Positions 6,213 to 58,362 of a stretch of DNA of 64,000 nucleotides are shown one piece after another; position 1 is the stretch's first letter, and each line of letters opens with the position of its first letter. The translations under genes and the position numbers were made by a program. Where the stretch lies: positions 1-64,000 of IMG/VR virus record IMGVR_UViG_3300017684_000001; one strand, 5' to 3'. The notes beneath the pieces are model-generated. The model saw only the letters and a program-made list of their open reading frames with translations. It was not told where the DNA came from and made no database searches. The DNA comes from a virus.

Positions 6213-6608
6213 CTACCGCCCGAATTCAACCTTCGTGTTCAGCCGCGCCGCCGACGGCGTCAATCCCGAACTCACGTCCGATGAATACGCGGTTTCGATC
6301 TCGACCGAAACTGTGTACTGGCGCGGCCCGGAATCATAGGCGCCGGAATAGGTTTTGATCTGTCGGACGCCGGGGGACGTCAGGATCCGAGTTTGAAGGA
6401 CGGCGTCGCGAACATTCGCTGTATAGCGGCCGAGGACGTTCTGCTCGTACGGCGTCCCGTCTGAGAGGTCCATGTACCACTGACCCTGCCAGAGGTTGAG
6501 CCGGCTCTCGACGATCTGCGCAACCGCATCCGGGGAATTGCGGAGAAACGCGACCTGATCGCCTCCGAAAACCATGTCCCCGTTCTCATCGACGCGACGA
6601 ACTCTCAT
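6213..6608 (-). CDS. small baseplate wedge protein (gpW/XkdS position)
   Basis: 131 aa ORF directly upstream of baseplate J. GAGGAGGAG RBS 4 nt before the ATG at 6608. Confidence 0.5.
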   Translation of the reverse strand: MRVRRVDENGDMVFGGDQVAFLRNSPDAVAQIVESRLNLWQGQWYMDLSDGTPYEQNVLGRYTANVRDAVLQTRILTSPGVRQIKTYSGAYDSGPRQYTVSVEIETAYSSDVSSGLTPSAARLNTKVEFGR

Positions 6609-6627: not shown

Positions 6628-6781
6628 GAGGTACGGGTTCACTTTTTTGGGTCGAAAGTGGGTACGAGCCGGTTTTATATATATAATATTTCTTCTTCTT
6701 CTAAATTAGAAGTAGAATACAGGAGAGGATATAAAACGGACCCGTACCCACTTTTGACCCAAAAAAGTGAACCCGTACCTC
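6628..6781. repeat. long AT-rich hairpin element, copy A
   Basis: Two ~52 nt arms (GAGGTACGGGTTCACTTTTTTGGGTC...) are reverse complements flanking an AT-rich near-palindromic core. Differs at 2 of 152 positions from the reverse complement of copy C. Confidence 0.9.
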
Positions 6782-6792
6782 CTCCCCTCCTC

Positions 6793-7659
6793 CTACCCCT
6801 CTAGGCTTGTGTAGTCGTCTGGGTCGACTGGATCGTGTTTCGTGTGCGCCGTAAGCGCCGACAAGGCGTCCGAGAGTGGCGCGAGGGCGTCCGGCTGTAC
6901 CAGCGACTGCAAAACCCCCTGAAAGCCTGTGGCGACCCCTTCCTCGCGATTACCTTCGACATCGAAGACCGGCGGTACGGCGAGCGCACCGCCGATCGTG
7001 GCAACCGAGGCGACGAGGGTGTGATTCGCGGCCGACCAAGAGAGCGCAGCATTCGAAGCCGAGACGATCCCGTTGAGTTGCCCACCGACGCCGTCGACCC
7101 AGGCTTGCGCGATTGCCGGGGCGAGGCTCCCCGAGACGACCTGTCCGACGACTTGCGGGAGTACGGTCTGAATCGAGCCGAGAAGGCCGGACGCCGTGAG
7201 CGGTCCGGTCACGACCGACGTCGCTGCGAGATCGGGGAGCGCCGCCCCGGCCATCTGCGCAGTCGTATCGTGAGCGATCATCCCGAGGAACCCGGCGCCG
7301 CCGTTTGTCAAACCGGCAAGCGTGTCGCCGGCCGATTGAAACGCCAAGAGAGTCGCCCCTAGGCCGTTCGCGCCCGTCAACGAGGATATGAGCCCGGCCG
7401 CGCCCGAAACGCTTCCTAGGCCCGCCGCGAGGCCGGGAATCGCCGACGAGATCGCCGACGAGATCGCTGCTTGCGGATTCTGAAGAAGCGACGAGAGGTT
7501 TCCGTCCTGGAGAACCTTCTTCATCAGATCGCCGGCCGCGCCGCCGTCGAGCCGTTTCGTGATCGAGAGCTTCTCCGCGAAGACGCTACCGACCTTCAAG
7601 AGCGGAACGCCGCCGATCAGTTGGAGCGCTTGGGGGAGGGGAACGAAGCCGCCGGCCAT
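6793..7659 (-). CDS. Gly/Ala-rich baseplate-module protein, unknown function
   Basis: 288 aa ORF between the spike and wedge genes. Low-complexity G/A/S/L-rich sequence. Confidence 0.5.
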   Translation of the reverse strand: MAGGFVPLPQALQLIGGVPLLKVGSVFAEKLSITKRLDGGAAGDLMKKVLQDGNLSSLLQNPQAAISSAISSAIPGLAAGLGSVSGAAGLISSLTGANGLGATLLAFQSAGDTLAGLTNGGAGFLGMIAHDTTAQMAGAALPDLAATSVVTGPLTASGLLGSIQTVLPQVVGQVVSGSLAPAIAQAWVDGVGGQLNGIVSASNAALSWSAANHTLVASVATIGGALAVPPVFDVEGNREEGVATGFQGVLQSLVQPDALAPLSDALSALTAHTKHDPVDPDDYTSLEG

Positions 7660-21705: not shown

Positions 21706-21771
21706 GAAAAAGAAGCTTTTCTTTTCCGTCGGGATGTGGCTATATCTCTGGGCGGCCGGGAGACCGCACCC
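21706..21771 (+). promoter_or_regulatory. early-type promoter cassette 1
   Basis: GAAAAAGAA A-tract. GCTTTTCTTTT box at 21715-21725. CTATAT at 21740-21745. Hairpin GGGCGG-CCGGGAGA-CCGCaCCC at 21750-21771. Same architecture at four other plus-strand sites. Confidence 0.55.
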
Positions 21772-29512: not shown

Positions 29513-29718
29513 AGCCCATTCGCCAACTTGCGGACGTCCTCGGGCCGGAAGTCCGGGGGAAGGCCGTTCACGAGATTGCACCGGACCTCGAACGATACCG
29601 TGACCCCATCTGTCGAGATCCGATTGACCTCGCACGAGACCGATTCGTAACCGAACGCCGCCCATCGGCGCTCGATCCGACGGGCGAGCTTCGTCGCCTC
29701 GCGCTCTTCGCCGATCAT
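29509..29718 (-). CDS. hypothetical protein
   Basis: 69 aa ORF. Confidence 0.45.
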   Translation of the reverse strand: MIGEEREATKLARRIERRWAAFGYESVSCEVNRISTDGVTVSFEVRCNLVNGLPPDFRPEDVRKLANGL

Positions 29719-30515
29719 CGCTGGCCTCCGCCCATCGGCAGGTTCGCGAGCTTCCGGAGATCCGGCGCCAGGCCCGGCATCGGGTCGATCCCGAACTTCG
29801 CCGTCAGCGCGTCGATCGAGATGATCTCGGGGGTCGCGTCCTCGGCGTTGTCGACGACATAGGCGCCCGCGAGGGTCGGCGCGTTCGTCGAGGGGTCGCC
29901 GGGGATGTAGACCGCCTTCCAGAGCCGGGCCGGGACCGCGACGCGCCCCTTGAGCTTCGTCGTCAGACCGGAATACGCCGGGCCGGTCACGATCCAGCCC
30001 TCGCCGCCGATCCGCAGGACGACCTCGCGCCGGACCCGCTCCTCGATCCGGGACCAGACGCCCCGGTTATTGTTCGGGATCTGCGGGACCATGTTCGAGA
30101 GCGCGAAACTCTCACGCTGCGCCGAGGCGGTCGGCATGTCGCCGGCCGGGGCCATGTGGCCGCGATCGTATGGGGCGCCCTTGTAATCGTTCATCTCGGC
30201 GCGGAATTCGATCGGCACCTTCGCATCGGCGTGGAAGGCATCGACGCGGTCGAGGTGATTGGCGGCGATCAGGCCGGCGACCGTGAGATGCTCGGCGGCG
30301 TAGGCCGGTCCGTACGACCACGGCGAGACCGCGTTCGCGAATGCCTGGTTGCAGATCTCCAACGAGCCGACGTCCGCGGGCGGGAGATCGGGGGCCTTCC
30401 CGGCGAGGTAGTGCGCGGGACAGGCGGTGTCCGCGGCGTATGCGGGGAGGCGATCGAGGCCGAATAGAGCCGAGGCCGCGAGAATCATGGCTAGGACGGG
30501 CGAGACGGGCTTCAC
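29715..30515 (-). CDS. secreted DNA/RNA non-specific endonuclease (NucA/EndoG beta-beta-alpha-Me family)
   Basis: 266 aa. Sec-type signal MKPVSPVLAMILAASALFGLDRLPAYA. Catalytic-type motif YDRGHMAP ... SNMVPQIPNNNRGVW. Confidence 0.8.
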   Translation of the reverse strand: MKPVSPVLAMILAASALFGLDRLPAYAADTACPAHYLAGKAPDLPPADVGSLEICNQAFANAVSPWSYGPAYAAEHLTVAGLIAANHLDRVDAFHADAKVPIEFRAEMNDYKGAPYDRGHMAPAGDMPTASAQRESFALSNMVPQIPNNNRGVWSRIEERVRREVVLRIGGEGWIVTGPAYSGLTTKLKGRVAVPARLWKAVYIPGDPSTNAPTLAGAYVVDNAEDATPEIISIDALTAKFGIDPMPGLAPDLRKLANLPMGGGQR

Positions 30516-30630
30516 GCGGGGAATCCTCGGGATTGAACGGGTCGGGCTTCTGCGGGGCGTTTCTGACGATTTCGGTTTTAACGGCTGATTGCGGGCTGTG
30601 GGAAGGGGTCGGAGGGAAGAAATCTGAGTA

Positions 30631-30803
30631 GGGGAGGGGGAGGTACGGGTTCACTTTTTTAGGTCAATTCTGGGTACCGCCCCGTTTTAAGTATATATAT
30701 ATTCTTCTTCTTCTTAAATTAGAAGTAGAATACGTAGGAGAAGAAAAAACGGACCGGTACCCAGAATTGACCTAAAAAAGTGCACCCGTACCTCCCCCTC
30801 CCC
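30631..30803. repeat. long AT-rich hairpin element, copy B (divergent, G/C-extended stem)
   Basis: Same architecture and plus-strand orientation as copy A. The stem is extended by GGGGAGGGGGAGG / CCTCCCCCTCCCC. Four arm substitutions relative to A/C are each compensated in the other arm. Confidence 0.9.
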
Positions 30804-30827
30804 CTCCCCCTTTGTCGTGTATTTTTC

Positions 30828-31247
30828 TCACTTTATCGCTGCGGAACAGTCACTTACGATTTTCCCCATGATCTTGCCCCACGTTTCGGGGTCCTCGGCG
30901 TCCCAAGTCTCGGCCTGAAAAGCGAGCGCTGTCTCTCGCTTGATCAGAAGCGGGTCGCTCGTCACGAAAAGTCGGGTGCCGTAGCCGACGAGAAGGCCGA
31001 CCCGAGCCCAGGCCCCCCGGAGATTTCGGATCTCGCGGTTCTGCCCCGGACGCATCTTCCAGGTCAGTCGACCGGTTCCGGGATCGAAGTCGCCGTTTTT
31101 CAGTTCGAGCCACGCCCCGCCCATATCCGCGACCCAAACATCCGGCGTCCCGACCGTCGAGCCCCGGGTCGGCTCGATCCATTGTGGGGCGGTCGCCCAA
31201 GCCTTGACCCACTTTCGGACGTCGGCTTCTGAAGCGAAGGGCTTCAC
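30828..31247 (-). CDS. PD-(D/E)xK nuclease, VRR-NUC-like
   Basis: 139 aa. GTPDVWVADMGGAWLELKNG ... MRPGQNREIRNL resembles the VRR-NUC core (from memory). Confidence 0.45.
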   Translation of the reverse strand: MKPFASEADVRKWVKAWATAPQWIEPTRGSTVGTPDVWVADMGGAWLELKNGDFDPGTGRLTWKMRPGQNREIRNLRGAWARVGLLVGYGTRLFVTSDPLLIKRETALAFQAETWDAEDPETWGKIMGKIVSDCSAAIK

Positions 31248-37869: not shown

Positions 37870-38406
37870 CTACACGTACCCCAATCGCCGAAGTTCGAGG
37901 AAGCAGCGGGTCAGCGCCTCGACGTCGACCCGTGCGCGGTGGGCTCCGGCGAACTTCTCGCCGAAGAGGTGTTCGTGCAGCGCGCCGAGCGAGAGCCGGT
38001 AGCCTTTGATCCACTCGGTCGCCTCGACCGTGCAGATCCGGCCGGCGGGCCATGGCACGACGAGGCCGCATCGTTCGAACTCGACGTCGATCATGGCGAC
38101 GTCAAAGCTCAGGTTATGGGCGACGACCTCGTCGGCGCGCTGCACGATCCTCGATAAATCGGGCGCATGAGCCGAGAACGGCTTCGCGCCCTTCAACATC
38201 TCGTCTGTGATACCAGTTATAGACGAGATCTTAGGCGAGAGCTTCTCGCCGGGGTTGGCAAAGAATTCTATCTCGTCGACCTTCCGGCCGTCTTCAAGAA
38301 GACAGCCATATAATTCTGTGACTTTAGGTTGGTGTTTTAGTGGAAGAAGACTTGCGCCAACGAGATCTGTGGTTTCCGTATCCGCGATAAATGAATAGAT
38401 ACTCAT
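37870..38406 (-). CDS. DnaQ-like 3'-5' exonuclease (DEDDh)
   Basis: ORF track 37870..38526. ATG 38406 (MSIYSFIADTETTDL = ExoI). AHNLSFDVAM = ExoII. HRARVDVEAL = ExoIII. Abuts the dnaE start. Confidence 0.8.
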   Translation of the reverse strand: MSIYSFIADTETTDLVGASLLPLKHQPKVTELYGCLLEDGRKVDEIEFFANPGEKLSPKISSITGITDEMLKGAKPFSAHAPDLSRIVQRADEVVAHNLSFDVAMIDVEFERCGLVVPWPAGRICTVEATEWIKGYRLSLGALHEHLFGEKFAGAHRARVDVEALTRCFLELRRLGYV

Positions 38407-38413
38407 TTTCGGA

Positions 38414-38863
38414 TCACCTAACCGGGAAATCATACGTCGGTTCACGCCGCGGCACGACCGGCTCGATCTCGACTTCCGGCTTCCAAGGCGGGGCCGTTTT
38501 GGGACTCTGAGCGAGCGGTCCGCCATCTTTGAAAGCCCAATCGATCGGATCTAACTTGTCGATTTTGTCTTGAGATTCCGCATCGAGTTCCCGCAGCATC
38601 GCCGCGTAGGTCGAAAGGTCGAGAAGCGAATCGTCGTGGCCGCCTGCCTCGAACTGGTTGGCGTACCGAACGATCTTCATGACGATCTGTGTGAGGACGC
38701 CGAGGCGGTTCGCGTCCTCGATGTTCCGGATCGCGAAGCCATTCGGCCGAAGCGCCATGAGCACATGGCCGAAGTTCTTATACGCGTCGCCGTAGACCTT
38801 TCCGCGCTCCTCGAAAACGTCGGCGCTCTCGCGTAGGGAATCTTGGGGTTTCATTTTCACCAT
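38414..38863 (-). CDS. all-alpha NTP pyrophosphohydrolase-like protein (uncertain)
   Basis: ORF track 38414..38908. Starts possible at 38863 or 38854. ERGKVYGDAYKNFG...KIVRYANQFEAGGHDDSLLDLSTYAAM recalls MazG-like phage proteins. Confidence 0.4.
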   Translation of the reverse strand: MVKMKPQDSLRESADVFEERGKVYGDAYKNFGHVLMALRPNGFAIRNIEDANRLGVLTQIVMKIVRYANQFEAGGHDDSLLDLSTYAAMLRELDAESQDKIDKLDPIDWAFKDGGPLAQSPKTAPPWKPEVEIEPVVPRREPTYDFPVR

Positions 38864-39333
38864 CCTGTCGCTTGAACCTGCCAACAGCAGTATCCGAGAT
38901 TGCGCCACGCCTCGACGACCTTGTCTCGGTCTTCGAGGATGAAGGCGACGTCTGGCCTTCCATCGTAAAAAAGTGATTTATCTTCTAGAAACTTATCCAG
39001 CATCGCCGGCTTAACCTCGACGTCCGGCCTCCAGTCGCCGTCCGACCGCATCAGGATCGTGTCGAAGACCGCTAGATCATGCTTGATCAGCCATTCAAGC
39101 GTCGTTTGGCGGTATCGCTCGTTCCGGCCGGTACAGGCGACGAGGAGGATCTTGTCGAGGACCGACCACCAGCAGAGGACGGAGAGAAAGAACGCCACAT
39201 CCGACCGAGGCCGATCGTCCTTGGCCGCTTGATGAAATTGATCCCATTCTTTAGCTTGTGCGAAATGATCTCTATGCGAAGAATCACAAAGAGTTCCGTC
39301 TAAATCGACCACTATGACTTTCACGAGGTACAT
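38857..39333 (-). CDS. HAD-superfamily phosphatase (nucleotidase/polynucleotide phosphatase-like)
   Basis: 158 aa. Motif I VVDLDGTLCD. Motif II-like LLVACTGR. C-terminal acidic motif ILEDRDKV. Confidence 0.6.
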   Translation of the reverse strand: MYLVKVIVVDLDGTLCDSSHRDHFAQAKEWDQFHQAAKDDRPRSDVAFFLSVLCWWSVLDKILLVACTGRNERYRQTTLEWLIKHDLAVFDTILMRSDGDWRPDVEVKPAMLDKFLEDKSLFYDGRPDVAFILEDRDKVVEAWRNLGYCCWQVQATGW

Positions 39334-39727
39334 CCTTCTGAGTTCTAGTTAAGCCTCTTAATTTATGATCTTTTTCTTCTTTTGTCATTTTATCCCAACT
39401 TAATTTTATTCCCTTAGATACGTTTAATCTCCAATTATGATTTCTTAAAACTCTTTCAATCGTATTTCTTTTCGAAGACCCAATGGAGAGATGATCTGGG
39501 TTTATGCACCATCCATTATCACAACTATGCAGGACCAATCCCTCTTTCAGATTAGGAGGACGACAAGGAATGTCTTCGCAATTAAGCCTATAGCTAAGAC
39601 GATGAGCAAACCAATTTTCTCCTCTCCACCTAAGTTTCTTTCGATTAGTAAGACGAGGAGCATCTACTTCGATGCAATCACCAACTTGTTTAAGAGGAAG
39701 AGGGAAAATAACGTTCTTAATATCCAT
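39284..39727 (-). CDS. HNH homing endonuclease
   Basis: 147 aa. AHRLSYRL...VLHSCDNGWCINPDHLSIGSSKRN is HNH_3-like. Strongly AT-rich island 39335-39760. The 3' end overlaps the HAD gene by 50 nt. Confidence 0.75.
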   Translation of the reverse strand: MDIKNVIFPLPLKQVGDCIEVDAPRLTNRKKLRWRGENWFAHRLSYRLNCEDIPCRPPNLKEGLVLHSCDNGWCINPDHLSIGSSKRNTIERVLRNHNWRLNVSKGIKLSWDKMTKEEKDHKLRGLTRTQKDVPRESHSGRFRRNSL

Positions 39728-39765
39728 TTGAACGGTCTTTCATCTCTCCACCCACAACCCGAGAG

Positions 39766-39785
39766 CCCCGGCGCGTGCGCCGGGG
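39766..39785 (-). other. GC hairpin at the upstream border of the HNH island
   Basis: CCCCGGCG-CGTG-CGCCGGGG, 8 bp stem, no U-run. Confidence 0.4.
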
Positions 39786-39803
39786 TCCGTCATCGGTTCG
39801 AAC

Positions 39804-40361
39804 TTACTTCTTGATCTTGGCGACGCGGCCGGTGAAAAGCCCGAGAACCTCGGGATCGATCGGGTCGCCGTTCCGGATCCGCTCGCGGGCGAACGCGCAC
39901 AGCGTTTGCGAGTGGACCGATTCGGCGACCTTCGGAGACAACCCGGCCTCCCGCAGCGTCGCCGCCGTCGAGAGCGCCTCGTTGTGCTCCGAACGGCCGA
40001 ACTCGACCTCGACCGCGGTCTTGATCAGGTCCGAGCCGCCGTTCTCGACGAGCCAGGACACCGCCGCGGCCCGCCGGACCGGATCGCTTGGGATCGATCC
40101 CGAGACGAACGGCTCGATCGAGATCATCCGCCCTTTGAACTTGAGCGCGTCGACGCCGAGTTCGGCCATCTTGTCGGGGACGGTCGCGGTCTTGAGCCGC
40201 TGTAGGAGGTTCTTCGCCGCCTTCAGGTCGGCGTCGAGATTGGCCACGATCTCTTCTTGCCGAAGCATCTGGTCGAGGAGACCGTTAAGCTCGGAGAGAT
40301 CGGAGGCCGGCGCCGCTGCGGCGCCGACATCGAAGTCGGAAGCGTTCGCAGTGCCGGCCAT
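39804..40361 (-). CDS. coiled-coil protein in recombination-module position
   Basis: ORF track 39804..40550. ATG 40361 (MAGTANASDF) lies 2 nt after the upstream stop. The upstream extension is Arg/Gly-rich noise. Confidence 0.5.
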   Translation of the reverse strand: MAGTANASDFDVGAAAAPASDLSELNGLLDQMLRQEEIVANLDADLKAAKNLLQRLKTATVPDKMAELGVDALKFKGRMISIEPFVSGSIPSDPVRRAAAVSWLVENGGSDLIKTAVEVEFGRSEHNEALSTAATLREAGLSPKVAESVHSQTLCAFARERIRNGDPIDPEVLGLFTGRVAKIKK

Positions 40362-41222: not shown

Positions 41223-41261
41223 ATCTAAGCCGATCCGGCCGCAAAAGGAAAGCGATTTTTT
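41223..41261 (-). promoter_or_regulatory. leftward early-type promoter (box variant)
   Basis: Minus strand reads AAAAAATC-GCTTTCCTTTT (10/11 match to the box), T at offset 10, TTAGAT at offset 15-20. About 60 nt upstream of ATG 41161. Confidence 0.4.
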
Positions 41262-41294
41262 GTGCGTTTCGGCAGAAAAAATGTACCTCGATTT

Positions 41295-41358
41295 GAAAAG
41301 GGCGCTTTTCTTTTAGGCCAGAATGCTATCTAAAGGTGTGGGGCCGGAGACGAGGCCC
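41295..41358 (+). promoter_or_regulatory. early-type promoter cassette 2 (rightward)
   Basis: GAAAAG. Box at 41304-41314. TATCTA/TCTAAA at 41327-41334. Hairpin GGGGCC-GGAGACGA-GGCCC at 41340-41357. ATG of the XRE gene at 41376. Confidence 0.55.
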
Positions 41359-41375: not shown

Positions 41376-41729
41376 ATGAACGCCAAAACCGCCCTCCCCG
41401 CCGACGCCCAGATCGGCGCGCGCGTCGCAGCGATCCGCCGGGCTCACGGCCTGTCGCAGGACGCCCTCGGCGCCGTTCTCGGCGTCTCGTTCCAGCAAAT
41501 TCAGAAATACGAGACCGGTAAGAATCGGATCTCGGCCGGCCGCCTCGTCGAGATCGCAAAGCGGTTCGGCATCTCAGTCGCACAACTTTACAGTGATGAG
41601 AGCGGCTATAACGATCCGCTCGCCCTCGAACTCGCTGCGGTGTTCGCGTCGATCCCGGACGTCGCGACCCAACGCAAGATCCTGGGCGTCGTCAAGGCGA
41701 TGGTCTCCGACGATGGGAAGGATTCGTGA
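41376..41729 (+). CDS. XRE-family HTH transcriptional regulator
   Basis: 117 aa. IGARVAAIRRAHGLSQDALGAVLGVSFQQIQKYETGKNRISAGRLVEIAKRFG is a canonical HTH_3. Confidence 0.8.
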   Translation: MNAKTALPADAQIGARVAAIRRAHGLSQDALGAVLGVSFQQIQKYETGKNRISAGRLVEIAKRFGISVAQLYSDESGYNDPLALELAAVFASIPDVATQRKILGVVKAMVSDDGKDS

Positions 41730-43819: not shown

Positions 43820-43851
43820 CGCGGAGGGGGGGGGCATCCACTTGTTCTCTA

Positions 43852-43916
43852 ATAAAACGCTTTTCTTTTACGAGAAAATGGCGCATACCTCCGTCGGGGC
43901 CGGAAACGAGAGCCCC
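43852..43916 (+). promoter_or_regulatory. early-type promoter cassette 3
   Basis: ATAAAAC. Box at 43859-43869. CATACC at 43884-43889. Hairpin GGGGC-CGGAAACGAGA-GCCCC at 43896-43916. GGAG RBS and ATG at 43932. Confidence 0.55.
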
Positions 43917-50011: not shown

Positions 50012-50078
50012 TTTAAAAACGCTTTTCTTTTTAATCAATCTGGCGTCTTATGGCGGCGGGGCCGGAGACGATCGCCCC
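50012..50078 (+). promoter_or_regulatory. early-type promoter cassette 4
   Basis: TTTAAAAAC. Box at 50021-50031. TCTTAT at 50046-50051. Hairpin GGGGC-CGGAGACGATC-GCCCC at 50058-50078. ATG at 50104. Confidence 0.55.
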
Positions 50079-50103
50079 ATGCTTAAACCGAGGAACGAAA
50101 GCC

Positions 50104-50910
50104 ATGTCAAAAACCGGAATTCAAGGGATCTCAACCGGGCGATCGGACACGTTCCGGATCAGCCTTGACGATCTCTATGTTCGAGAAGGATGGAACGCGC
50201 GCGACGTCGACTTCAACCCGAATGATGAAGACGATCTGGCTCTCGCTCAGTCGATCGCTGAAGTCGGCGTCAAGGAGACGATGACGGCGATCTGGGAGGA
50301 CGGGCGGGCCTACATCACGAACGGACATCGTCGCCGGGCCGCCGCTCTCTACGCCCGCGACGTCCTAAAAGCCGAGATCAAGTCCGTCCCGGTTCAGACC
50401 GAGCCGCGGTATTCGAGTGAGGCCGAACACGTCCTCTCTCAGATCGTCCGGAACGCCGGCAAACCGCTTACCCCATTCGAGAAGGGCAAGGTGTTCAAGA
50501 AACTTCTCGACCTCGGCTGGAGCGAGACGGAAATCGGTCAGAAGACCGGGATCACCCGTACGCGCGTCGTGCAACTTCTCGAAGTCCAATCGGCCCCGGA
50601 GCCCGTCAAGGCGATGGTTCGATCGGGTGAGGTCTCAGCCGATCTTGCCATGAAGACGATCCGAGCAGCCGACGGCGACACCGGAAAGGCCGTCGCCGAT
50701 CTCGCAGGCGCGATCGGCACGGCGAAGAAGGCCGGGAAGACCCGAGCCACGGCCAAGCACGTCGAGGGCGGCGAGCCTCGATCATCTCTCAAGAAGACCG
50801 CCGGGGAATTGCTCCGCGTTTCCGAGGTTGAGATCTCAGGCGACGACGTGGTCACGCTGACCATGCCGAAAAGCTACTTCGAGCAATTCAAGAAGGCCGC
50901 TGGGTACTGA
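50104..50910 (+). CDS. ParB/Srx-fold N-terminal domain protein with HTH
   Basis: ORF track 50050..50910. ATG 50104 (MSKTGIQG). ITNGHRRRAAAL is a ParB GxxRxxA-type box. GWSETEIGQKTGITRTRVVQLLEV is an HTH. Confidence 0.75.
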   Translation: MSKTGIQGISTGRSDTFRISLDDLYVREGWNARDVDFNPNDEDDLALAQSIAEVGVKETMTAIWEDGRAYITNGHRRRAAALYARDVLKAEIKSVPVQTEPRYSSEAEHVLSQIVRNAGKPLTPFEKGKVFKKLLDLGWSETEIGQKTGITRTRVVQLLEVQSAPEPVKAMVRSGEVSADLAMKTIRAADGDTGKAVADLAGAIGTAKKAGKTRATAKHVEGGEPRSSLKKTAGELLRVSEVEISGDDVVTLTMPKSYFEQFKKAAGY

Positions 50911-51754: not shown

Positions 51755-52276
51755 ATGAAGACGCATATCGAACTCGGAATCTCGAAAAGTGAATATGACG
51801 CCCTGATCGCGACGGCGGCGTATCTCCGCGCGGATGAGGATTTATGGATCGACGAAATGGAAGTCGACGATGGAATCGAAGAAGAACGAGAGAGACCGTT
51901 TTTTAATATGCTCCACACTTGCGAAGGCTATGCTTGTGGAACCGTAGCTTGCATCGGCGGACACGTTTCGATCTTCCAAGAACTAGGTCGAATTCCGGAA
52001 TACGTCGAAGCGGACGTCCGCGATCGCGCCGACAAATACGTCTCAAAGAAGAACTTCCAGGACTATATGGACTCGGGAGAGGTCGCGCGGGAGAGGTACG
52101 AAGCAGCCTCCGGTCTCGCTAAGCTCTTCTACCCAGCCCCAATCTCGAATTGGAATGGCTTAACCCCGGTCGTCGCGGCCGACGCGATCGACCGATTTCT
52201 CGCGACCGGCGATCCGGGTTGGGTCGAGATCGCGAAAGAAAAAGGGTTTGTCCTCGCACCAGGGTGGAATCGATGA
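51755..52276 (+). CDS. hypothetical protein, Cys-motif paralogue 2
   Basis: 173 aa. FFNMLHTCEGYACGTVACIGGH ... AIDRFLATGD. Confidence 0.5.
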   Translation: MKTHIELGISKSEYDALIATAAYLRADEDLWIDEMEVDDGIEEERERPFFNMLHTCEGYACGTVACIGGHVSIFQELGRIPEYVEADVRDRADKYVSKKNFQDYMDSGEVARERYEAASGLAKLFYPAPISNWNGLTPVVAADAIDRFLATGDPGWVEIAKEKGFVLAPGWNR

Positions 52277-52554
52277 GCGCCAACGACGGCGGCCCGACAA
52301 TCCGAGTCTCGCGCGCGCCGGTCGATCGGCCGCGGATCCCGCGCGGAATCGTATCGGTCCCGGTGTGCCCCTCGGAGTGCGAGAATAGCCCTGTAGCTGG
52401 CGAGCGCGCCGATTTCAGCCTCCGGGTCATCGACGACGCCGGACGGGTCTACGAGGCCCACTATCACGGCGCGCGGGCCGTATCCATCGAGGATGGGGAT
52501 CGCGCGCTCTTCGAAGTCGGCCCGGAGGTCGTCGTGACCTGGGATCCGGCATAG
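52273..52554 (+). CDS. hypothetical protein
   Basis: Part of ORF 52150..52554. ATG 52273 forms an ATGA overlap. Confidence 0.45.
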   Translation: MSANDGGPTIRVSRAPVDRPRIPRGIVSVPVCPSECENSPVAGERADFSLRVIDDAGRVYEAHYHGARAVSIEDGDRALFEVGPEVVVTWDPA

Positions 52555-52566
52555 GGGGGAGTGGAG

Positions 52567-52720
52567 GAGGTACGGGTTCACTTTTTTGGGTCAAAAGTGG
52601 GTACGGGTCCGTTTTATATCCTCTCCTGTATTCTACTTCTAATTTAGAAGAAGAAGAAATATTACATATATAAAACCGGCTCGTACCCACTTTTGACCCA
52701 AAAAAGTGAACCCGTACCTC
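52567..52720. repeat. long AT-rich hairpin element, copy C
   Basis: Reverse complement of copy A with 2 substitutions in 152 nt. About 53 bp outer stem (1 mismatch, 2 G-T pairs) plus an inner TTCTACTTCTAA/TTAGAAGAAGAA stem. Confidence 0.9.
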
Positions 52721-52741: not shown

Positions 52742-53341
52742 ATGGAATGGGACGCATACCTCTACGGATTCGCGGAACACGCCGCTAAGAAATCGAAGGA
52801 CTCGACCCAGGTCGGCGCCGTCCTCGTCGCCCCGAACGGCCGCAGCGTCCTGCTGACGGCGTTCAATGGCCCGCCGCCCGGCGTCCTCGATCTCCCGGAA
52901 CGTCGGGAGCGGCCGGAGAAGTACCGCTACGTCTGCCACGCCGAGCGCAACTTGATCGCGACAGCGGCCCGCCACGGGATCCGCACGGATGGGACGACGG
53001 TCTACTGTACCCACCGATGTTGCTCGCCGTGTGCCGCGGAGATGATCGCCGCTGGCGTCCGGACCTTCGCCTACGGCCCCGGCCGATTCGTCGGCGACGG
53101 TGAGCAGTGGGAGGCTTCGGCGACGATGTTCGCAGAAGCTGGCGTCAAGACTAAAGAAATTATCGCGAGGGCGCCCGCGGATCCTGATCGCGATTGGTGC
53201 GAAAGAGCGTTCGCTCTTTTCCGGTCTCTGGCGCCTCACCGTCCTCTCACGCCGACCGACGATGCCGAGCTTCTCGTTGGGCTCGAACTGAAAGAAGAGC
53301 CATCAAAGACCGTTCTCCGCATTCTTAAGGTCCGTCCATGA
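52742..53341 (+). CDS. dCMP (deoxycytidylate) deaminase
   Basis: ORF track 52706..53341. ATG 52742 after AAGGAG. Zinc motifs CHAERNLI and CSPCAAEM. Confidence 0.8.
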   Translation: MEWDAYLYGFAEHAAKKSKDSTQVGAVLVAPNGRSVLLTAFNGPPPGVLDLPERRERPEKYRYVCHAERNLIATAARHGIRTDGTTVYCTHRCCSPCAAEMIAAGVRTFAYGPGRFVGDGEQWEASATMFAEAGVKTKEIIARAPADPDRDWCERAFALFRSLAPHRPLTPTDDAELLVGLELKEEPSKTVLRILKVRP

Positions 53342-55226: not shown

Positions 55227-55266
55227 GAAAAAGACGCTTTTCTTTTCGGTCGGAATAGGGTCTACT
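55227..55266 (+). promoter_or_regulatory. early-type promoter cassette 5 (no +1 hairpin)
   Basis: GAAAAAGAC. Box at 55236-55246. TCTACT at 55261-55266. AGGAG at 55284 and GTG at 55296. Confidence 0.5.
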
Positions 55267-57357: not shown

Positions 57358-58362
57358 CTAGTTGCACCACGCCTCGATGAAAACGGTCGGTGTCCCGGTC
57401 GTCGCGAGATTGAGCGACAGGACGCCGAGAAGCGAGACCGTCGCCGCCTGCGAGACGTTCCCCGATACCGTCGTCGTCGTCACAGTCGAGACGTTTCCCA
57501 TCCGGACGCCAGCCGCGGTCGCGTCGACGCCCTGGGCCTGAACCTGGACGTTGTACGGCGCGGCGGTACACCCTGCCGAGGCGATCGATACGGACCAGAG
57601 CCCGTTCGTCGCGACCGTTGATCCGACCCAGACCTTTGCCCCGGTGCGCGCGCCGGACGGCCCGTAGACCGGAATGGATCCTGCGGGTCCGATTGCGCCA
57701 GTTAGTCCCGTCGGCCCCGTTGGGCCGGCTGGCCCTGTCGCTCCAGTCGCACCTGCGGAGCCCGTGGCCCCCGCATCACCCTTCGTCCCGGTCGCGCCTT
57801 GCTGACCCGTCGCTCCAGCAGGACCAGTTGCTCCAGCAGATCCCGTGTCTCCCTTCGCGCCCTGAATACCCTGAGGCCCTTGGGCACCTGTTGAGCCCGC
57901 ATTTCCCGTCGCCCCCGTTAAGCCTTGAGGCCCGCTCGGACCCGTCGCTCCCACCGGACCAGGATTACCCTGCACCCCTTGAGCGCCAGCCGGTCCAGTA
58001 GGCCCGGCGACCCCTGTCGCTCCAGTCGGGCCAGGCTGGCCCTGTAATCCTCGATCGCCCTGAGCGCCCTGCGGCCCCGTAGCTCCCGTTGCTCCGGTGT
58101 CCCCCTTCGGCCCAGCATTGCCCGTCGCTCCCTGGATTCCCTGCGGGCCTGTGGCCCCGGCCGCGCCCGCATCCCCCTTCGGCCCCTGAACGCCCTGGCT
58201 TCCCGCCGGCCCCGGGGCTCCGTCTGCGCCGGGGTTGCCTGGCGGCCCAACACCATTCTGCCGGATGTAGGCGAGCGCCGGCCCCGTTCCGAAGTCGGGG
58301 ATCGCTTCGAGACTGAGAAGCCCGAGCGCGAGCGAGAATGCGATCCTACTGACCGAAGCCAT
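57358..58362 (-). CDS. collagen-like (G-X-Y repeat) protein with N-terminal hydrophobic leader and globular C-domain
   Basis: 334 aa. About 60 uninterrupted GXY triplets ([19 protein letters not shown]...). N-terminus [18 protein letters not shown]. Confidence 0.85.

Follow-up and report, generated by a model that had tools for sequence, protein, structure and literature searches.

Palindromic intergenic repeats at three syntenic junctions of a tailed phage genome, with arms possibly kept alike by DNA-level copying

A palindromic element of about 155 bp is present in three copies in the genome of a tailed phage, and the three gene junctions that it occupies are syntenic with those of a related phage, 634. 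Homologous elements are found at these junctions in a small set of GC-rich relatives. We tentatively interpret it, with a probability of roughly 45%, as a Correia/ERIC-like intergenic repeat of phages, whose arms would be kept alike mainly by copying at the DNA level and which, by analogy, would act in the transcript as an RNase III or mRNA-stability hairpin.

While familiar from bacteria, palindromic intergenic repeats have rarely been described in phages. Such repeats and phage MITEs are kinds of elements already known (PMC11602168, PMC2649163, PMC4122927), and in the literature we found no description of the present combination, in which three large palindromes occupy fixed junctions, their termini compensated, their centre conserved and their arms turning over in concert. 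The family is small and clean, and therefore tractable for the question whether the symmetry of a long palindrome is maintained by hairpin selection or by arm-to-arm conversion. A second question that it poses is whether these elements are processing sites, or recombination points at which phage modules are shuffled or inverted.

Results

Phage genome and other repeats

The analyzed stretch of DNA, here called the window, comprises 64,000 nt (positions 1-64,000 of the IMG/VR virus record IMGVR_UViG_3300017684_000001) of a tailed phage genome of 65,697 nt with 62% G+C. Its gene products include portal, large terminase, tape-measure protein, baseplate J and sheath initiator, as well as a DUF5906 primase, a Pol III alpha subunit, helicases of the UvrD and SNF2 types and a dCMP deaminase. 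Neither the window nor the element matched anything in INPHARED, and the phage has no close relative among deposited phages.

Several other features of the window were recorded. A low-GC patch at 38000-40000 (0.53 vs 0.62) looks like an acquired cassette; it contains two ORFs, one resembling His-Me-finger homing endonucleases (39284-39727) and one resembling PNKP phosphatases (38857-39333), and is adjoined by an RNase_T-type exonuclease gene (37870-38526). Collagen-like Gly-X-Y repeats, with 14 register-shifted copies of a 9-nt-periodic unit, are found on the minus strand at 57716-58248 inside what is probably a tail-fibre gene (57358-58362). Another repeat found between genes has the form GAAAA-N4-GCTTTTCTTTT; it includes a small palindrome, GAAAAG/CTTTTC, and is located on the plus strand at 21706-21725, 41295-41314 and 55227-55246, with weaker sites at 41243-41262 on the minus strand, at 43850-43869 on the plus strand and around 50016. 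Five matches were observed against 0.02 expected, two of them flanking a divergent region beside a Cro/C1-type HTH gene (41376-41729), and the repeat is probably an operator or promoter motif.

Position and anatomy of the three copies

An arm profile search of the window returned exactly six arms, hence three copies of the element. Copy A (6628-6781, minus strand) lies between the stop codon of a tail gene (6793-7659) and the Shine-Dalgarno (SD) sequence and ATG of the sheath-initiator gene (6213-6608). The core element of copy B occupies 30640-30794 on the minus strand, its sense orientation being that of the minus-strand genes on both sides. Copy C (52567-52720, plus strand) follows the stop codon of a small ORF (52273-52554) and precedes the dCMP deaminase gene with its SD and its ATG at 52742. 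Copy C is reversed in the window relative to A and B, and all three copies lie between co-directional genes in the same orientation relative to local transcription. Similarity between copies A and C, counted over 181 nt with the flanks, is 97%. The core element begins 11 nt after the upstream stop codon in A, 12 nt in C and 33 nt in B (24 nt for the extended stem of B), and family-wide the start ranges from overlapping the upstream stop codon to 33 nt past it. In A and C the flanks are purine-rich on the sense strand, the 3' flank carries the SD, and SD and next start codon fall within 19-21 nt 3' of the element. The 3' flank of B is the complement of its 5' G-run, and no start codon follows there.

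On the 65,697-nt genome the gaps between copies are nearly even, at 24.0, 21.9 and 19.8 kb. Three points placed at random on a circle would all lie at least 0.30 of its length apart with P ~0.01 by our own arithmetic, which is post hoc. The corresponding gaps in phage 634 are 18.8, 23.1 and 26.1 kb.

Both neighbours of copy B had been proposed to be nuclease genes. The upstream gene (30828-31247, minus strand) encodes a 139-aa protein which was called VRR-NUC-like. The label is unconfirmed. In the motif E...PD...ExK of the protein, E25, P35-D36 and E48-x-K50 are invariant in five homologues and typical of PD-(D/E)XK nucleases; assignment goes no further than this PD-(D/E)XK-like motif, with no Pfam or PDB sequence match and an AF2 model (pLDDT 52) too low for fold search. 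The downstream gene (29715-30515, minus strand), whose start lies 124 nt past the element, was correctly described as a secreted nuclease: it matches Endonuclease_NS at 1.4e-33 and has a signal-peptide-like N-terminus.

The element measures 154-168 bp, and phage 634 has three copies of it, as does the window. Reading frames across copies are not conserved, as read directly from the sequence, and the element is non-coding. Its anatomy in the family consists of terminal inverted repeats of 13-14 bp, two arm segments of about 30 bp each that change fast, and a conserved AT-rich centre which carries a small (TTC)n/(GAA)n hairpin of its own. In B, the terminal inverted repeats of 13 bp read GAGGTACGGGT[T/G]C and are followed by the variable arms and by the AT-rich centre (30689-30745) with its (TTC)n...(GAA)n mini-hairpin. 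The arms of B, 30631-30688 and 30746-30803, are 58 nt each and 95% complementary, so that the full stem extends over 30631-30803.

The original prediction for copy B was based on sequence strings that were all found at the positions given for them, and its central observation was reproduced. Compared with A and C, copy B carries G>A and AAG>TTC in one arm and C>T and CTT>GAA in the other; the changes are exactly mirrored, so all four pairs are kept. The compensation in B is less than perfect: T30651 opposite C30783 is a mismatch that had been overlooked, and another sample of this phage carries the pairing base at that position. The arm of copy A, TTGGGTCGAAAG, has a private mismatch too. A 32-nt core was said to be shared by the copies, and as written it matches only B at up to 3 mismatches, with A and C shifted by one base; the exact common part is AAATTAGAAGTAGAATAC plus (TTC)4. 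Likewise, the 13-bp stem extension ascribed to B does pair, but four of its pairs (GAGG/CCTC) belong to every copy. The B-specific part is 9 bp, namely the G-run half GGGGAGGGG at 30631-30639 and the C-run half CCCCTCCCC at 30795-30803.

Relatives and occupied junctions

Elements of relatives were found by fetching the DNA beside homologues of the flanking proteins; the comparison rests on about five independent lineages and includes several half-copies. At junction A, between tail gene and sheath initiator, palindromes are present in L001, L071 (phage '634', 68 kb) and L090. The element of L087 is complete but for about nine bases, and L086, L091 and L093 have right halves only; these four are incomplete because the Logan assemblies stop inside the repeat. 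Junction C, between the small ORF and the dCMP deaminase gene, holds elements in L080 (634) and in L151/L152. At junction B, a copy designated B' follows the homologue of the 139-aa gene and precedes the nuclease gene in L095 (phage 634, the closest complete relative), and two more distant phages (L062 and L064) have decayed versions whose termini still resemble those of the family and whose centre is of the (TTC)n/(GAA)n kind. Occupation of the three junctions extends to phages with primases only ~60% identical, and every occurrence found of the element is at one of the three syntenic junctions, with none at a non-orthologous site.

Occupation is not obligatory. Junction A is empty in L092, where it reads stop-AG-ATG and the start codon comes 2 nt past the stop, and in L088 the site is taken up by a 67-aa ORF. 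In L153 (1-1498; ENA ERZ24825746 k141_38338) an element joins the ortholog of A's upstream gene (...DPDDYTSLEG*) to the dCMP deaminase gene; this may be a real product of recombination or inversion between A and C, or a chimera assembled through the repeat, the contig being from a k141 assembly. At 4140-4185 of L095, in an intergenic spacer upstream of the 634 primase region, a single arm matches weakly (E = 0.11) and may be the remnant of a fourth copy. The Logan contigs L067, L086, L087, L091, L093 and L154 end within or right beside the element, and a 21,819-nt contig of the same phage seems to span exactly C to B. The element therefore fragments de Bruijn assemblies of this phage clade.

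Larger collections were scanned with the window-type arm and with short words. No two-armed copy was found in 185,579 species-representative genomes, where the window-type arm gave single-arm chance matches only. Two exact-pattern scans of the metagenome collection were both empty. In viral contigs the core 18-mer returned L001 and seven chance matches in AT-rich coding DNA, and the arm 17-mers gave single-arm chance matches only in the genome and viral collections.

Covariation and turnover of the arms

A plain MAFFT alignment of whole elements placed gaps in one arm only, and was replaced by arms aligned ungapped from the termini. In the alignment of nine full copies, standard pairs make up 89.4% of cells, and 31 of the 45 arm pairs have changed on both sides, a number reached by none of 500 shuffles. 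Sliding the 3' partner by 1-3 columns reduced pairing to 27-49%. Complementarity of an arm to its own partner is 80-93%, against 28-60% for arms of different variants. The two-sided changes and the shuffle and slide controls together indicate that palindromic symmetry is maintained well beyond chance.

Conservation is unevenly distributed along the element. The outer 13-14 bp pair in every full copy, with compensated terminus variants GAGGTACGGGTTC, GAGGTACCAGTTC, GAGGTACGAGTTCG and GAGGTTCCAGTAC, and co-variation of the termini persists in copies whose inner arms are unpaired. The ~30 bp inside the termini are almost wholly different between variants, yet paired within most copies. Between the window and L151/L153, 60 of 64 centre positions are identical (94%), against 37/45 and 30/45 in the arms (67-82%). 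A possible loop inversion in the window lineage relative to 634, L087 and L090 was dropped, since the centres are quasi-palindromic and both orientations score alike in the alignment.

The original prediction read the mirrored substitutions of B as evidence that the pairing itself is under selection. Two-sided change is indeed family-wide, but G·U wobbles, a strand-specific kind of pair tolerated by RNA only, number 6 sense versus 6 antisense after collapsing dependent copies, and thus show no strand bias. Homologues with uncompensated changes, named in that prediction as a refutation, do exist: B', L151 and L153 are paired at only 24, 33 and 36 of the 45 arm positions, respectively; L090 is paired at 36 of 45. 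Copy B' pairs only at the 13-bp termini and in the small central hairpin, and looks like a hybrid of a 634-type left arm with a window-type right arm. Covariation in a DNA palindrome cannot separate a selected RNA or DNA hairpin, symmetric protein half-sites and arm-to-arm gene conversion from each other, and mirrored substitutions of this kind should not be taken as RNA covariation without further evidence.

The arms also turn over independently of their surroundings. The element is 98.7% identical to that of L001, where both flanking genes are ~90% identical. Between 634 and L093 the flanking protein has 76% amino-acid identity and the arm 96%, whereas between L091 and L090 the values are 88% and 54%. 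Element type, as judged from these comparisons, is decoupled from the phylogeny of the flanking genes, and copies within a genome are much more alike than orthologous copies across genomes.

Folding, G-quadruplex motif and expression signals

The sense RNA of B is predicted to fold at -126.9 kcal/mol (z = -16.8), and no shuffle folds as well; the antisense RNA reaches -120.4 kcal/mol and the same stretch as DNA -75.5. Predicted hairpins range from -78 to -127 kcal/mol across copies, apart from the poorly paired B' at only about -60 (-59.8). Their uninterrupted stems have 26-43 predicted pairs, above the ~20 bp of double-stranded RNA named for RNase III sites. In 6 of 8 copies, corresponding to about 3 of 5 independent lineages, the sense strand has a slight folding advantage over the antisense strand.

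The G-run of B had also been suggested as a possible G-quadruplex. A canonical motif (four G-runs of at least 3, loops of 1-7) is present on the minus strand at 30785-30810 as G5-A-G5-A-G5-AGGTAC-G3, overlapping the 5' arm of the hairpin, with which it would compete according to this motif-level prediction. The same scan found none upstream of A or C. Since the motif is missing from A, C and the relatives, it is confined to B and is not a feature of the family. Three of the ten canonical G-quadruplex motifs in the window lie within 300 nt around B, at 30518-30546 and 30593-30616 on the plus strand and 30785-30810 on the minus strand, and five of the other seven are in the collagen-like repeat at 57.7-58.2 kb.

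The centre of B contains a single sigma-70-like match, TTAAGA-16-TATACT, from 30717 to 30690 on the minus strand, and no such match passed the scan in A or C. A sigma-70 promoter in the centre, or a -35 TTGACC in the arm, was rejected as a family feature, because only B passes and TTGAC is not conserved in 634-type arms. An intrinsic terminator was rejected as well: the hairpin is not followed by a U-tract on the sense strand, and no terminator-like site was found in any copy. An Rfam search of the whole window gave no family at the gathering threshold; in E-value mode there were sub-threshold matches only, to plant miRNA-precursor models on both strands, which are generic long-hairpin matches.

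Discussion

Proposed copying of arms and a predicted hairpin in the transcript

The lack of wobble bias, the decoupling from the flanks, the likeness of copies within a genome and the extension into the flank argue that the mirrored changes are not simple RNA covariation. Arm symmetry could instead be kept by gene conversion or recombination, from arm to arm or from copy to copy, or by hairpin-templated repair. One copying event would yield the mirrored AAG>TTC block of B and at the same time push the palindrome 9 bp into the flank. In the other copies the place of these 9 bp is ordinary flank outside the element, which fits copying better than selection for lengthening a stem that already has 49 bp, and three adjacent flipped pairs together with a flank extension are expected from a copying process in few events. 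Such homogenisation appears incomplete, to judge from B', L151 and L153, and this counts against the reading.

The position of the element inside operons makes it almost certain that it is transcribed. It would be co-transcribed in polycistronic mRNA and fold there into a hairpin which, by analogy with CREE/ERIC elements or T7 intercistronic sites, would be a substrate for RNase III and a block to 3' exonucleases. The hairpin would thereby separate the message of the upstream cistron from that of the downstream one, or uncouple them. Two further observations weigh against our reading. The centre is more conserved than the arms, which pure hairpin function does not predict and which points to a sequence-specific role, and the occupation of the same three junctions in phages with ~60% identical primases is hard to square with a purely passive element.

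Other explanations

These two observations are best accommodated by the strongest rival, a functional site at the DNA level, although we still consider it unlikely. The termini and the AT-rich centre would be recognised by a protein of phage or host, or the palindrome would extrude as a cruciform, and the site would be a promoter or operator, a replication-initiation site, or a site of recombination or inversion; copies would co-evolve within each genome. Such a site agrees with a 94% conserved centre between arms at 67-82%, with termini that co-vary even without inner-arm pairing, with the same three junctions in relatives and with the unbiased wobbles. The near-even spacing (24.0, 21.9 and 19.8 kb, P ~0.01) speaks for it too, though that statistic is post hoc and concerns one synteny. 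L153, with A's upstream gene and C's downstream gene joined via the element, is what an A x C inversion would give, unless it is a chimera of its k141 assembly. The sigma-70-like match in the centre of B has no counterpart in A and C. Moreover, L092 and L088 show single sites to be dispensable, the analysis yielded no candidate for a binding protein, and cruciform extrusion would have to open an imperfect centre of 48-86 nt. A more elaborate proposal, and a distinctly speculative one that we hold to be very improbable, is that the three near-evenly spaced palindromes are functional sites of the phage chromosome, for instance cruciform-forming sites of initiation or recombination: recombination between the inverted copies A and C would flip a segment of ~20 kb and give two viable isomers, while centre and termini would co-evolve with a phage factor and the arms be renewed by hairpin-templated copying.

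An origin as a MITE appears improbable; the element would then be a non-autonomous transposon, and a transposase acting in trans, encoded by the host or by another element, would bind its 13-bp terminal inverted repeats. The element is small, non-coding and multi-copy, with a variable interior and conserved terminal inverted repeats of the length that the definition asks for (at least 10-15 bp); it shows presence/absence polymorphism, its type is incongruent with the flanks, and such elements are known in phages (PMC11602168). Direct repeats are seen around 634C (GCCCAACCCGACC and GCCCAGCCGAACC) and around A (GGTAGGAGGAG and GGCAGAGGAGGAG), but those flanking A, C and 634C are imperfect (purine-rich or matching at 10 of 13 positions), the flanks of B are inverted rather than direct, and no exact target-site duplication was seen. 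Mobility is disfavoured by the restriction of all occurrences found to three syntenic junctions without any new site, by the absence of a transposase or integrase domain among ~45 window ORFs scanned, and by the lack of any two-armed copy in the 185,579 genomes (window-type arm) or the metagenome collection. The original view, an RNA element with pairing under purifying selection, compensations fixed pair by pair and the G-run serving as a G-quadruplex switch, is similarly improbable in our assessment. It can draw on the strong covariation, on the slightly better folding of the sense strand, on the shared orientation of the three window copies relative to transcription and on the G-quadruplex motif of B. 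The folding preference, however, shrinks from 6/8 copies to ~3/5 lineages, wobbles stand at 6 vs 6, inner pairing is lost in B' and reduced to 73% in L151, the G-quadruplex motif is missing from all other copies, and no Rfam family matches. The three adjacent flipped pairs and the flank extension look like single multi-base events.

Protelomerase sites, pac/cos sites, retrons, CRISPR-repeat mimics and ParB-parS were rejected, as copy number, size or a missing partner gene or motif did not fit. A protein with a ParB-HTH domain is encoded on the plus strand at 50050-50910, 1.7 kb upstream of copy C, and window-type arms contain GTTCAC/GTGAAC, resembling parS half-sites, but these half-sites are not conserved in the 634-type arms of relatives.

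Comparison with known systems

Viral MITEs (vMITEs) are rare in viruses and are defined by counterparts in host genomes (PMC11602168). The phage element resembles them as a small non-coding phage element with terminal inverted repeats; it differs in that no counterpart turned up in the genomes scanned with the window-type arm, and in showing no sign of transposition to new sites.

A closer likeness is to the CREE/NEMIS elements of Neisseria and to ERIC-type repeats, which likewise lie between genes, encode no protein, measure about 154 bp and have a characteristic core enclosed by inverted-repeat ends. CREE are 153-157 bp in length, create promoters, bind IHF and are cut by RNase III, and their arms form mRNA hairpins, with arm symmetry deciding whether RNase III binds or cuts them (PMC2649163). 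They are co-transcribed with their neighbours, are possible recombination hotspots, and most copies are positionally conserved between strains (PMC2649163). There is no sequence relationship, however. The core ends of CREE are CCGGTACGG and TCAGGACAA (PMC2649163), and TCAGGACAA is missing from all three window copies when these are read directly; GGTACGG is present in the element but too short for CREE homology. CREE also differ in their number, with more than 100 copies per bacterial genome against three per phage genome, and in their repeats of 26 bp against arms of 45-58 bp. The phage element shows no exact target duplication, was not found in bacterial genomes scanned with the window-type arm and is restricted to three syntenic junctions.

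Intercistronic RNase III hairpins of the T7 group are positionally conserved between cistrons, with the next ribosome-binding site just 3', and are imperfect hairpins of ~60 nt with a defined internal loop. The phage element would share with them the location of a hairpin between cistrons of a long phage transcript, both transcript and cleavage being predicted for it. T7 sites are neither DNA palindromes with a conserved AT-rich centre nor near-identical repeats.

PeSL (promoter-early stem-loop) cassettes of T4-like phages are short intergenic repeats which combine a stem-loop with expression signals and act as recombination points between otherwise unrelated sequences (PMC2839356, PMC4122927). 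They are many small terminator-plus-promoter composites in hyperplastic regions, whereas the element described here forms three large palindromes in conserved operons, without a U-tract terminator or a consistent sigma-70 promoter (a promoter-like site is present in B only). Both are short repeated intergenic motifs in a myovirus, and the hybrid copy B' and the L153 junction hint at the same recombination behaviour.
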